A DNA stretch of 64,000 nt from Escherichia coli (GTDB lineage: Bacteria; Pseudomonadota; Gammaproteobacteria; Enterobacterales; Enterobacteriaceae). This document shows, one piece after another, positions 39,001-42,000 of the stretch; positions within the stretch are counted from its first letter, which is position 1; each line of letters starts with the position of its first letter. The stretch lies in assembly GCF_003991155.1 (NCBI RefSeq), contig NZ_CP031297.1. One strand, written 5' to 3'. A program made the position numbers.

Positions 39001-42000
39001 CGGTCTCATGGCCTGATGTGAAGGCATACGCTGTACCTTGAACGCCAGAGACAAAATTAGGAGCTGACCCTAGGCGAGGCTCCACGATTTTCACCTTAAC
39101 GGAACACATGTCAGCTACCTTACTTTGTCCGTTCACCCACGTCGGGCAACCCCATTCATTCTTGTAGAACTGATAGGTTAGGCGACCGTCTTTGTCATAC
39201 AGAAGCGTGAAATTGGCACCCAAATCAGTCAGCGCTGACTCAATGGAAACTTTCACATGTGAAAGAAATTTGGCCTGAGCGTCTGCCGGTGAAACTGCTT
39301 CGTTAGCAGGCATCCAAGCGATCAAGCTATTGCGAGCGCCATGCTGTTTGGGGCCGATAGCCCAGTTCGCAAGGTTGACCAAGCCACCTTGCCAGTCGGT
39401 CATTCCGAGCTGAGGGGACATGTAGCCAGACAGCACGTAGGCTGCCCCAAACGTTTTGGTGTCGGTCAGACGCTCCAGCTTGTCACGCGGAACAGAAGCG
39501 TCTTGGATGCCTGTTACCAGGCCACCGGCCTCCGCGATGTTGTAAGCGCGACTGTGATTGGTTTTGTACGCTGTGGGTTCGTAACTGCTGGTGGATGCAC
39601 AGCCAGATAGAGCTGCTACAGCCAGAGCCACGGTGGTGATTAAAGCCTTTTTCATGTTGTTCTCCGTTCTTACCTGAGTTGAATCTGATTTACTTCGATA
39701 ATATCACAGCATCAAAAAATGCAACCATAAAAGACAAAAAAAAGCCCCTCGGGCGAGGGGCAAAGGTTTGGGCTGGGTTATGCTGCTTTTGTTTTCTCGG
39801 CTTCGTCTGCGATTTCCTTGTCGCCGGTTGCAGATTCCGGAGCGGCTTCGGCCACTTCACCTTCTTTGCCTTTGCTGTGGGCGGAAATGCGAGCCCGTTT
39901 CTCGATGCCGATGATTCGACCGGCCAGCTTGATGAGGCGTTGCTGCCATTGGTAAGTGGCGTCGGTGCGCTGCTTGCTGGTCAGTACGGTGTTCAGCCAG
40001 AGAGTGTCAACGATCCCCATCAGGGTATCCAGTTTGCGGATCAGGTGTGCAAACTGAGCAACCTGAGGAGAGTTGATCTCGATGGTGTATTCATTCGGGT
40101 TGGTGTAGCCGGGCATCATGTCGATGCCGTTGTCTTCCATCAGCTTGTTGAGCTGGGCGGTAGCTTTGTCCAGGTCTTCGGAGACCTTGGAAATGTGTTC
40201 CAGGATGACGGTTTCAACCTGGTCGATTTCGTCCTGCTCACCGATGATGCGAAGGATCACGTCGATGGAGAACAGGGAGTTGGAAACTCGCTCAAAGCTG
40301 CGTTCCATGACGCGCTGAGCTTGGAGGCTGTTTACTTTCAGAACTTGCTTGAAAACAGGGCGAGAGTAGTGGTTGCTGCGGTCGTTGTTTGTGTCCAGTG
40401 CTACTTGTGCTTCTGCCATTAGAGATACTCCTAAATTTGAGGTACAGATAAACGCACTGGAAAGGATAAATGCGGTCAATCTGTAACCTGACCTCTCGAA
40501 GTGCCCAAAATGGACAGTTACAGCGTTTTCTGTTTAGCAAAGGTGAGCTATATTTGAATCATCTTAGTCGCTCTGCGGCTATAGGTGAGATAGCTGGTCT
40601 CCGAAAACAAACAGCATCTAGTCTTATGCCGTATGGCATTACTTAACCCCAAGCCGGGGGCTTCTCCCGGTTTTCGGGTGTTGCCCCTGTTTTTTTTACA
40701 TAGGAGCAACACCATGCACATCATCACTTTCATTGTAGTTCTGCTTGCATCTCTGGGCGCACTGTACGTAGGCGCGAAGGCATTTGCTTTTTCCTTCATC
40801 GTTCTCGCTAAAGTGTTCCAGCGTATCGGTTTGTTCCTTTGGAACAAATTCGCAGTTCCTGCAATGCGGTCTGTACAGGCCGTCATCAAAGAACGTGCTG
40901 CCAAGGCTGAACAAGCCAAAGCAGTCGTTGAACCTGAGGTAACTCAAGTTCAAGAAGTCGCTAAACAAGAACCTGACTGGGATTATCTCGAAATCCCGAC
41001 TTACCTTCGTAAGGGCAAGGAACTTGTTTGGTAATAACTGTCGCTGAGTAATCTTCGACACTTTCAAACCCATCGGGGCAACCATACCCCGACGGGGATG
41101 TTGCCCCTTTTTGCTTAGGAGCAACATCATGGAAATCGCTATCATCGCTTTGTGTATCCCTGCTGGTTGGGCAATCTCTCGTCCTTTCGTGAGAATCGCT
41201 GAATCGTTCGGTTACTGCTGATAGTCAACGCAAAGGGAGGGGGCAACCCCTCTCTTTCTGGTCAAGCCTCTGTGGCTTGTCCTCAAAGTCTTCTGGTGTC
41301 AGTTGGCTTTGACGACAAGCTACAGGGGGAATGTCGAATGCAACAGAATCTTCATGTTTACGACGATCACGCAGGCATCATCTATCTGGCTGATGGACGC
41401 GAGGTGAAATTTGATCCGAAACTGTATTCCAGCTCCTACCAGGCGCACAGTGAAGCAGTGAAGTGGGCCAAAGAAACCGGGGTCATTGGTCAAAACGACG
41501 ATGTGGTGATGTTCGTCCATTGAGGGAGTAGCCTCCAGGAGAGGCTACTCTCCTCGCTCCTTAAAAGTCTTCTTACTCATGGTGAATACCATCAGTAAGC
41601 AGATTTTGTTCTCTTCGGAGAGCGAAAAGTGCGATAGCTGGTCGCCAAAAACAAACAGCAAATTAACGTTAATTTACTAGCCCAACCGGGCGCATCCGCC
41701 CGGTTCGGGACGTGGTGCGCCTGTCACAATAGGAGCGCACCTATGTCTCAATACTCTCAATTCTCAGTAAGCAAGGTTTTCGGTATGCCCAGCATTCCGG
41801 AGAAGGTAACGGCCATCGGCTACGCTGACGGTTCAAACCCTTTCATCCCTGCCACTGATACCAACTACGTTTTCCGCAAAGAGTTTCTGCGAGAGGTCTT
41901 GGCCTATCTCAAAGAGCCTGGCGGTGACGCATTGTTCGTAACCGGCCCTACCGGGTCTGGCAAAACCTCAGGTATCACCGAGATCGCTGGTCGTCTCAAC

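Follow-up and report, generated by a model that had tools for sequence, protein, structure and literature searches.

Two terminator-shaped hairpins flanking vcrx087 on an IncC plasmid are copies of a repeated two-state mRNA element

We analyzed a stretch of 64,000 nucleotides (the window) from Escherichia coli contig NZ_CP031297.1 (RefSeq assembly GCF_003991155.1), which is IncC (IncA/C2) plasmid backbone, and in it two GC-rich hairpins on either side of the gene vcrx087. A preliminary description of this DNA had taken the first hairpin for an attenuator-like leader and the second for a strong terminator. The two hairpins (copies 1 and 2) belong to a cis-acting two-state mRNA element that recurs before almost every plus-strand gene beyond 40.6 kb, up to where the window ends; the terminator shape of both hairpins is the open state of this element. 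This multi-copy RNA element is undescribed and absent from Rfam: with Rfam 15, the whole window gave no match, and the region and two leaders searched separately gave chance-level matches only, at E ≤ 5-10. On balance, we lean towards reading the elements as translational control switches that hide the ribosome-binding site (RBS), and not primarily as terminators; the repression itself we infer from the predicted folds.

The element consists of six segments: C0 (CCC), G1, C1, G2 (GGG), C2, which is the strand complementary to the Shine-Dalgarno sequence (anti-SD), and the Shine-Dalgarno sequence (SD) with its spacer. Along the mRNA they appear as (UAA)CCC, hairpin, GGG, anti-SD, loop, SD and AUG. 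In the closed fold, helix P1 (C0:G2) clamps the upstream hairpin P2 (G1:C1), and helix P3 pairs C2 with the SD and the bases up to the AUG, so that the RBS is buried; the full-length RNA of site 2, the second hairpin, folds with P2 clamped by the CCC:GGG helix in just this way. In the open fold, G1 and the P2 loop act as a mimic of the SD region and pair with C2, while C1 pairs with G2, giving one long hairpin and a free SD. The sequence of G1 and the P2 loop is similar to the SD region of its own gene, which leaves the anti-SD strand a choice between two partners.

To locate further copies, we used a covariance model built from 17 copies instead of a MAFFT alignment of the paralogous copies, which recovered P1 and P2 and misaligned P3. 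In the window the model gave 22 plus-strand matches at E ≤ 0.02 and one more at E = 0.1, of which 11 or 12 were outside the seed. All matches were confined to positions 40646-63803, and none fell in the 40-kb tra region (1-40600). The best match was copy 3 with 68.7 bits, which has orthologues in nine genomes; orthologues of copy 2 are present in pK520, pEI, Shewanella and Alcanivorax. Relatives retrieved via the ATPase vcrx089 carry the element in Vibrio, Alcanivorax, Marinomonas, Edwardsiella, Paraglaciecola and the betaproteobacterium Mycoavidus, and also in a Desulfovibrionaceae metagenome-assembled genome, in which the ATPase is just 46% identical. Across ten sources there were 68 distinct matches with E < 1e-3, and all 68 were on the gene strand.

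Compensatory changes support both folds. In nine orthologous vcrx087 leaders, 93.6% of the cells of the closed fold (counted together with the helices of an upstream module, described below) were paired and 12 pairs had changed on both sides (0/500 shuffles), and pairing reached 96% in the open fold, where an A-U/G-C exchange divides four sequences from four others. The mutually exclusive pairings that had been proposed for the leader are thus real and conserved. Among the 68 copies, 186 cells had changed on both sides compared to 87 ± 8 in shuffles, and family-wide covariation was 0.304, where shuffles gave 0.162 (0/500) and slid controls about 0.10. Each of the ten P3 pairs showed compensatory changes on both sides in these copies. 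An SD-sequestering translational control element is expected to have a helix that covers the SD and is kept by compensatory changes, and P3 is such a helix. P3 is part of the full-length minimum free energy (MFE) structure at both sites. The mean pairing probability of the SD was 0.79 in the switch region versus 0.59 before tra genes (p = 0.011), the SD was paired in 84 of 92 metagenomic leaders, and the mean predicted cost of opening it was 6.8 kcal/mol.

The open fold is likewise a property of the whole family, as all 23 window copies formed the long hairpin when truncated just before the SD arm. Its outer stem had −14.9 kcal/mol when both strands came from the same copy and −10.4 kcal/mol when they came from different copies; the corresponding values were −10.9 and −7.1 kcal/mol for P3 and −11.5 and −8.6 kcal/mol for P2, each within-copy energy being better than 2000 of 2000 permutations. 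G.U cells outnumbered A.C cells 131:62 in the switch helices when a conserved C.A column was excluded. This column is a mismatch opposite the A of GGAG (for example, 40685 opposite 40705), with 48 of 67 cells non-standard. Owing to this mismatch, the anti-SD run complements the G-runs G1 and G2 perfectly but the SD imperfectly.

The sequence features listed in the preliminary description were all confirmed in the sequence at the positions given there (Table 1), including the pairing of GTTGC with GCAAC beside the SD of a 30-codon open reading frame (ORF; ATG at 41129). At both sites a GC-rich hairpin stands directly before a U-rich tract, as in an intrinsic terminator, and each RNA truncated at the U-tract indeed folds into the interrupted hairpin that had been described; because the stems are interrupted, a simple terminator scan missed both. 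The terminator-shaped fold had −23.3 kcal/mol in the leader (40654-40699; z −5.8, 0/200 shuffles) and −22.2 kcal/mol at site 2 (41075-41114; z −3.5, 1/200 shuffles). The T-tract scores, computed with our own d'Aubenton-Carafa-style implementation, were 5.2 and 4.05, respectively, and 4.8 for the operon-end terminator at 61523. In the full-length RNA the terminator fold was not the MFE structure at either site; this structure had −33.4 kcal/mol at both (z −3.9 in the leader and −5.3 at site 2).

The 3' arm of the second hairpin had been said to double as the anti-SD, which is correct according to the predicted folds and is true of both sites; in the predicted fold, copy 2 occludes the RBS of the 30-codon ORF. 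The attenuator-like leader has to be judged in two parts: its layout, with an early competitor followed by a terminator-shaped hairpin and a U-tract, holds, whereas a gene-specific attenuator does not, the structure being a general two-state switch. Nor do two terminators lie within 450 nt of the promoter, as counted from the mapped transcription start site (TSS) hairpin 1 spans +94 to +137 and hairpin 2 +515 to +552.

Termination as the conserved function is not borne out by the comparison of copies. A U-tract follows the open-fold hairpin in two of the 23 window copies, which are exactly copies 1 and 2, and in seven of 92 metagenomic leader copies, and is lacking in the other 21 and 85. Among the vcrx087 orthologues the stems are kept and the leader tract is variable: pVCR94 and a Shewanella copy have ATTTTTCTT, pEI has TCTTTTCTT and pK520 has TAATACCTTT, the pVCR94 leader carrying AUUUUUCUU instead of U8, and T8 occurs only in the IncC type studied here. 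In the orthologues from Aeromonas (pK520), Alcanivorax, Mycoavidus and Paraglaciecola the U-tract is absent or degraded.

Efficient termination in vivo also disagrees with published RNA sequencing (RNA-seq) of pVCR94. In these data, the values without and with AcaCD were 5 and 3445 for vcrx087, 9 and 11025 for vcrx088, 3 and 3463 for vcrx089, 4 and 1448 for ssb, 23 and 4762 for bet, and 3 and 3015 for vcrx095. The RNA was AcaCD-dependent from vcrx087 onward to vcrx096, the sole AcaCD box being upstream of vcrx087, and there is no AcaCD site between vcrx087 and vcrx098 (Carraro 2014). Since the downstream RNA depends on AcaCD and no AcaCD site follows until vcrx098, transcription from PvcrX087 passes both hairpins. 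Downstream RNA was not reduced in pVCR94, where site 2 is identical to that of the window. A PvcrX087-lacZ fusion is active in plasmid-free E. coli, which would point the same way provided that the cloned fragment spans the leader. We conclude that the terminator character is a minority, non-conserved variant that polymerase passes in vivo. Two terminator-like sites in the window are not switch copies: GCCCTCCttcgGGAGGGC followed by T5 at 61523-61545, just upstream of the AcaCD box of vcrx114, and ACGGCTATCCCttcgGGGGTGGCCGT with a T-rich tail at 49755-49790, between the VWA gene and the next, where the RNA of pVCR94 falls about 2-fold.

To follow the order of folding, we read it from the MFE structures of growing transcripts. 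In the leader, P2 appeared first (−14.6 kcal/mol) and then P1 (to −21.6 kcal/mol), both staying in the MFE structure until C2 emerged. The terminator fold was the MFE structure of the leader only with the 3' end at about 40689-40702, by just 1-2 kcal/mol, and that of site 2 was favored by 3-4 kcal/mol only with the 3' end at about 41107-41124. Once the SD arm of the leader was out (40706 or later), the closed fold won with −30.7 to −33.4 kcal/mol. The barrier from preformed P1 and P2 to the terminator fold was about 21-22 kcal/mol (direct-path estimate), and in the full RNA the barriers were 20-26 kcal/mol from closed to open and 10-15 kcal/mol from open to closed. These calculations suggest that the terminator is kinetically masked by a built-in competitor, which would explain read-through without an extra factor. 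We propose that P2 and then P1 would form first during transcription, that the high rearrangement barrier would usually let polymerase pass the U-tract, and that P3 would close the RBS when the SD arm emerges, which would make the closed state the default folding product. The conserved task would then be to control how translation starts, and any termination at copies 1 and 2 would be leaky or conditional at most.

As to what may open the switch, our guess for the intercistronic copies is a ribosome terminating at the stop codon that abuts C0, and for the leader copies some factor might act together with the upstream pseudoknot module. The upstream stop codon is 0-1 nt from C0 in 11 of 34 intercistronic copies and at most 14 nt away, a distance that a terminating ribosome could span, in 24 of 34, and in terms of sequence this proximity to the CCC clamp hints at a coupling to upstream translation. 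We rejected an RNA thermometer, as opening the SD costs 8.7 kcal/mol at 20 °C and still 6.2 kcal/mol at 42 °C. A Pfam search of 20 proteins of the region returned one weak methylase match and no RNA-binding or NusG-like regulator.

A number of observations weigh against translational control by these switches. In this region bet and exo are reported to be functional, so the occlusion must somehow be overcome. Ten of the 34 intercistronic copies are more than 14 nt from the upstream stop, the leader copies have no conserved upstream ORF (uORF), and with a ribosome-covered intermediate (a ribosome-release ratchet) the direct-path barriers gave no consistent preference for the open fold. All barriers are a direct-path heuristic that leaves aside proteins and polymerase. 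The G- and C-run segments are of low complexity, so that some alternative pairing is expected from composition; P1 never covaries, and the shuffle and permutation tests used sequences that are related to one another. The plasmid used for RNA-seq, pVCR94, carries AUUUUUCUU, so read-through of the U8 variant of the leader was not directly seen, and steady-state RNA-seq levels mix synthesis and decay.

Upstream of the leader switch lies the second conserved structure, an H-type pseudoknot that we refer to as the module. The window contains seven copies, at 40587-40615 and at 41633, 46468, 50300, 54714, 58496 and 61637. We aligned 40 distinct copies, six of the seven from the window and the others from relatives. 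The 5-bp hairpin HP-B was paired in 99% of the cells, with three of five pairs covarying, an invariant loop AGCUG and a U.G closing pair, and the 4-bp pseudoknot helix was paired in 100%, including a compensatory GCUA:UAGC in Paraglaciecola. The ratio of G.U to A.C cells in the module was 119:8, showing that the mRNA-sense strand folds. Hairpin HP-A, which varies across copies, was paired in 94.6% of the cells in nine orthologues, with two pairs changed on both sides. At least 120 metagenomic contigs contain the core pattern, as does one IMG/VR contig, and a switch copy and a gene start usually come after it. The module follows the AcaCD promoters of vcrx087, vcrx098 and vcrx114 and also recurs internally. 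It had no Rfam match in the window, region and leader searches; we found no paper that describes it, nor one with its sequence in a relevant context, and the papers on SetCD and SgaCD do not discuss structures of untranslated regions (UTRs).

The internal modules have an extra upstream helix (GCUUUCC...GGAAAGC or CUUACU...AGUAAG) around a small hairpin, preceded by a conserved AAGUCU, at 46390-46440, 54625-54690, 58420-58470 and 41560-41600; an internal module, with about 110-150 nt, is thus larger than the repeat core. The module and switch leader is a nearly exact duplicate over about 120 nt before vcrx089 (41597-41720) and before the DUF3150 gene (46432-46555), and multi-mapping reads at these two places could mask published ChIP-exo, 5'-end and RNA-seq signals. 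The AcaCD boxes of vcrx098 (50146-50174, GCACCCGAAAAGGGCAG) and vcrx114 (61549-61577, GCACCCCAAAAGGGCAA) each have a module and a switch copy about 90-170 nt downstream, and the AcaCD promoters of the tra region have neither.

Several identities of the module were tried and rejected. It is not the AcaCD box or promoter, for which a GCCCNDWWWGGGC box at −64 to −37 of a mapped TSS would be expected, as the true box is at 40497-40525 and the module is downstream of the TSS; the spacing between module and hairpin is 9-33 nt without a conserved −10 sequence, and Carraro 2014 had no ChIP-exo peak at the internal modules, though two exact duplicate copies may be lost to multi-mapping. It is not an RfaH ops/JUMPStart element (GGCGGTAGnnTG on the non-template strand), for which 48 matches with at most two mismatches were counted versus 45 expected; one of the seven module copies (58493) came within two mismatches of this consensus, and most copies read GATAGCTGG. 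A nut site (boxA plus boxB) was likewise discarded, CGCUCU being present in some copies only and inside HP-A. A leader peptide or uORF ending at the UAA or UAG before C0 was dismissed as well, since the frames differ among copies and are lost in orthologues. The sole in-transcript ORF that ends at the UAA before C0 is MPYGIT (40626-46) with six codons, whose frame and stop are lost in the orthologues from pEI, Edwardsiella anguillarum, Vibrio and Aeromonas, yet the surrounding hairpin covaries.

It is possible, if rather doubtful, that pseudoknot and switches together constitute a plasmid-wide layer of control after transcription initiation for the "dark" half of IncC and related elements, in which each RBS would be opened only by an event on the CCC clamp. 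This event would be a ribosome ending on the preceding cistron, or some factor. The role of the pseudoknot would be either to arm whichever cistron comes first in a unit or to let polymerase disregard conformers with a terminator shape. Such RNAs would form a new class of regulatory RNA, present in multiple copies on clinically important resistance plasmids and in many elements from the environment.

We regard it as unlikely that both hairpins are functional intrinsic terminators, with the upstream module making RNA polymerase termination-resistant. The module would then act as an RNA, like HK022 put or the Bacillus EAR, or as a factor-loading site, like nut or ops, and its internal copies would re-arm polymerase every 4-5 kb. 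Hairpins of −22 to −23 kcal/mol and U-tracts with T scores of 5.2 and 4.05, both of terminator quality, further terminator-like sites inside AcaCD-dependent units (41239 and 49755) and the read-through that occurs in vivo are all consistent with this idea. So is the module itself, a conserved structured RNA 18-55 nt after the TSS that is also found after the AcaCD promoters of vcrx098 and vcrx114 and in none of the tra operons, with every copy co-oriented with transcription and with Rockhopper-predicted operon boundaries that match its positions. However, the ops consensus is not enriched, being within two mismatches in one of seven copies, the boxA-like CGCUCU is not conserved across copies, and no NusG-, N- or Q-like protein was found with Pfam among the 20 proteins of the region. 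The U-tract is missing in over 90% of the switch copies and in the orthologues despite the conservation of the module there, and a self-contained kinetic account of read-through exists. We found no paper that links antitermination or RfaH with AcaCD, pVCR94 or this plasmid family.

Two other explanations seem less probable still. The elements might be mRNA processing or stability modules, in which cleavage in the A/U-rich stretch before C0 would leave G/C hairpins to protect the new ends and the half-lives of the cistrons would be set separately, RBS pairing being secondary; we consider this quite improbable. Almost all intercistronic gaps do hold stable GC hairpins with an A/U-rich UAA sequence in front, neighboring cistrons differ in RNA level (11025 for vcrx088, 3463 for vcrx089 and 904 for vcrx090) and operon predictions break at the modules, but P3 sits exactly on the SD and stops 0-3 nt short of the AUG, with ten of ten pairs covarying, none of which is needed for end protection, and a stabilizer needs no copy-specific design of two exclusive folds. 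It appears very improbable that the hairpins instead function during conjugation and as single-stranded DNA, for instance by providing the transferred strand with priming sites or single-strand promoters. The G.U-rich and A.C-poor helices on the mRNA-sense strand (119:8 in the module, 131:62 in the switch) and the way P3 follows SD and start codon from gene to gene speak for RNA; moreover, no −35/−10 pair is embedded in the stems, and the sense strand could not serve as a template for these mRNAs. The single orientation of all copies over more than 23 kb, the spacing of the modules every 1-6 kb and the presence of establishment-type genes (ssb, bet, exo and a DNA methylase) would have suited such a role.

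Of the known systems, translational attenuation of ermC and cat comes close to the switch in its consecutive complementary segments and two exclusive folds, the default one hiding SD and start codon in the final helix, from which they are freed when the middle strand pairs differently. The switch differs in that it has no conserved leader peptide, precedes about 23 genes including intercistronic gaps, and has an extra CCC:GGG clamp. Riboswitch expression platforms use the same three-strand logic, with an upstream SD mimic competing with the SD for the anti-SD strand; however, we recognized no ligand-binding aptamer and found no Rfam match, and the intercistronic copies are preceded by an ORF only. 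Copies 1 and 2 share with intrinsic terminators and the trp and pyrBI attenuators a GC-rich hairpin directly before U8 or U5 and an earlier-forming competitor, whereas in the switch family a U-tract occurs in about 8% of copies and is not conserved, downstream RNA is not reduced, and the leaders lack a regulatory leader peptide. The hok mRNA of plasmid R1 is also a plasmid mRNA kept inert by SD sequestration, with metastable folds and an order of formation that matters, but hok, a single toxin locus, needs 3' processing for its activation and is under the control of the antisense RNA Sok, while the switch is multi-copy and neither an antisense partner nor a processing signal was identified.

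The module, for its part, resembles lambda nut, HK022 put, Bacillus EAR and RfaH ops in being promoter-proximal, co-oriented, structured and transcribed, and in being repeated inside long operons with terminator-shaped hairpins. Unlike these, it has no ops consensus or conserved boxA, and it is an H-type pseudoknot with a 5-bp stem in place of the two stem-loops of put. Its 5-bp stem 1, 1-nt loop 1 and 4-bp stem 2, the latter formed by the hairpin loop and a downstream tetramer across a 10-nt A-rich connecting loop, recall the preQ1-I riboswitch and the T4 gene 32 operator. In contrast to preQ1-I, the module gave no Rfam preQ1 match even at E ≤ 10 (231-nt query), is present in seven copies per window, and has no bases between the stem 2 strand and the 3' strand of stem 1, so that a ligand pocket is not obvious.

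Over the 1.4 kb that surround the two hairpins, many IncC (IncA/C2) plasmids from Escherichia, Klebsiella, Salmonella and others match with 100% identity, and pVCR94deltaX (NC_023291.1) aligns at 98.4%. The AcaCD motif of vcrx087 corresponds to pVCR94 65019-65047 (Carraro 2014, Table S3), its core is GCCCNDWWWGGGC (PMC8373056), and the box overlaps that of the divergent gene acaB (vcrx086). The TSS of vcrx087 was placed at pVCR94 65081-83 by 5' rapid amplification of cDNA ends (5'-RACE; Carraro 2014), which gives an mRNA with a 5' UTR of about 153 nt. With the TSS at about 40559-40561, module copy 1 (40578-40616) and hairpin 1 (40654-40697) lie within this 5' UTR, and the published AcaCD box and TSS (Carraro 2014) mean that both elements are transcribed. 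Genes 3' of vcrx087 are vcrx088, the AAA ATPase vcrx089, vcrx090, ssb, bet and exo. The vcrx087 protein had no Pfam family match; its C-terminal motif D(W/Y)xYLEIPTYLRKGxxLVW is similar to the FtsZ C-terminal peptide and is retained in orthologues down to about 27-36% identity (Alcanivorax, Mycoavidus and Paraglaciecola), in which the remainder diverges. The peptide encoded by the 30-codon ORF, MEIAIIALCIPAGWAISRPFVRIAESFGYC, is conserved with substitutions in the Aeromonas plasmid pK520 and the Edwardsiella plasmid pEI.

Table 1 Features of the vcrx087 region and their positions in the window
Feature	Position	Strand	Basis or details
traN	35949-38756
vcrx086 (acaB)	39778-40479	−
AcaCD box of the vcrx087 promoter, CGAAGTGCCCAAAATGGACAGTTACAGCG	40497-40525	+	Carraro 2014 Table S3 motif, mapped by sequence
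TSS of vcrx087	~40559-40561	+	pVCR94 5'-RACE site mapped by sequence; −10 TATATT 40549-54
HP-A, first hairpin of module copy 1 (UAGUCGC ucu GCGGCUA)	40565-40581	+
Module core, H-type pseudoknot	40587-40615	+	HP-B GAGAU-AGCUG-GUCUC 40587-40601
Pseudoknot helix	40593-96 with 40612-15		Loop GCUG with CAGC, A-rich 10-nt linker between
HP-C, leader-specific hairpin (AUGCC guau GGCAU)	40626-40639	+	91% paired, 3 covarying pairs (9 orthologues)
Switch copy 1 ("leader attenuator")	40647-40713	+	Folds, orthologue covariation, covariance-model match 45.5 bits, E 6e-9 (seed member)
Copy 1, segments	C0 CCCC 40647-50; G2 GGG 40676-78		P2 40651-60 with 40664-73; anti-SD strand 40677-87
Copy 1, P3	40677-87 with 40703-13		Covers SD GGAG
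Copy 1, alternative long hairpin	40655-61 with 40683-89		Plus 40666-69 with 40675-78
GGGGC; GCCCC	40657-61; 40683-87	+
CCGGGGGCTTCTCCCGG; CCCGGTTTTCGGG	40654-70; 40666-78	+
TG + T8	40688-97	+	Then SD AGGAG 40702-06, ATG 40714
U8 tract	40690-40697	+	After open-fold hairpin of copy 1; in P3 loop of closed fold
vcrx087 coding sequence (CDS), 106 amino acids, membrane protein	40714-41034	+	ORF list; RefSeq CDS 65235-65555 in pVCR94; orthologues
Switch copy 2 ("strong terminator")	41069-41128	+	Folds; covariance-model match 53.8 bits (seed member)
Copy 2, closed fold	P1 CCC 41069-71 with GGG in 41094-97		P2 G-run 41075-78 with C-run 41087-90
Copy 2, P3	41098-108 with 41118-28		GAUGUUGC.CCC with GGA.GCAACAUC
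Copy 2, alternative hairpin	41075-82 with 41100-07		GGGGCAAC with GUUGCCCC, enclosing CCCC/GGGG
GGGGCAAC; GTTGCCCC; T5	41075-82; 41100-07; 41108-12	+
U5 tract	41108-41112	+	After open-fold hairpin of copy 2; identical in pVCR94
30-codon hydrophobic ORF, unannotated, MEIAIIALCIPAGWAISRPFVRIAESFGYC	41129-41221	+	ORF list
Module copy 2 + switch copy 3, reference composite leader	41597-41745	+	Upstream of vcrx089 (AAA ATPase); repeats

IncC plasmids are major carriers of multidrug resistance. The part of their backbone that begins with vcrx087, about half of the total, contains ssb, bet, exo, methylase genes and dozens of genes for proteins without a known family. How this half is regulated beyond its AcaCD promoters had not been described before. 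If our reading is right, a two-state RNA before nearly every gene, and a conserved pseudoknot heading each transcription unit, would add a post-transcriptional layer to the AcaCD regulon, and the presence of terminator-shaped hairpins inside operons would be explained. For annotation, terminator predictions at these sites are unreliable in this plasmid family. The elements offer concrete, mutable targets for studies of translational coupling, antitermination and the control of establishment in recipients. Module and switch are not confined to IncC plasmids: at least 120 metagenomic contigs have them, as do elements of Beta- and Deltaproteobacteria.

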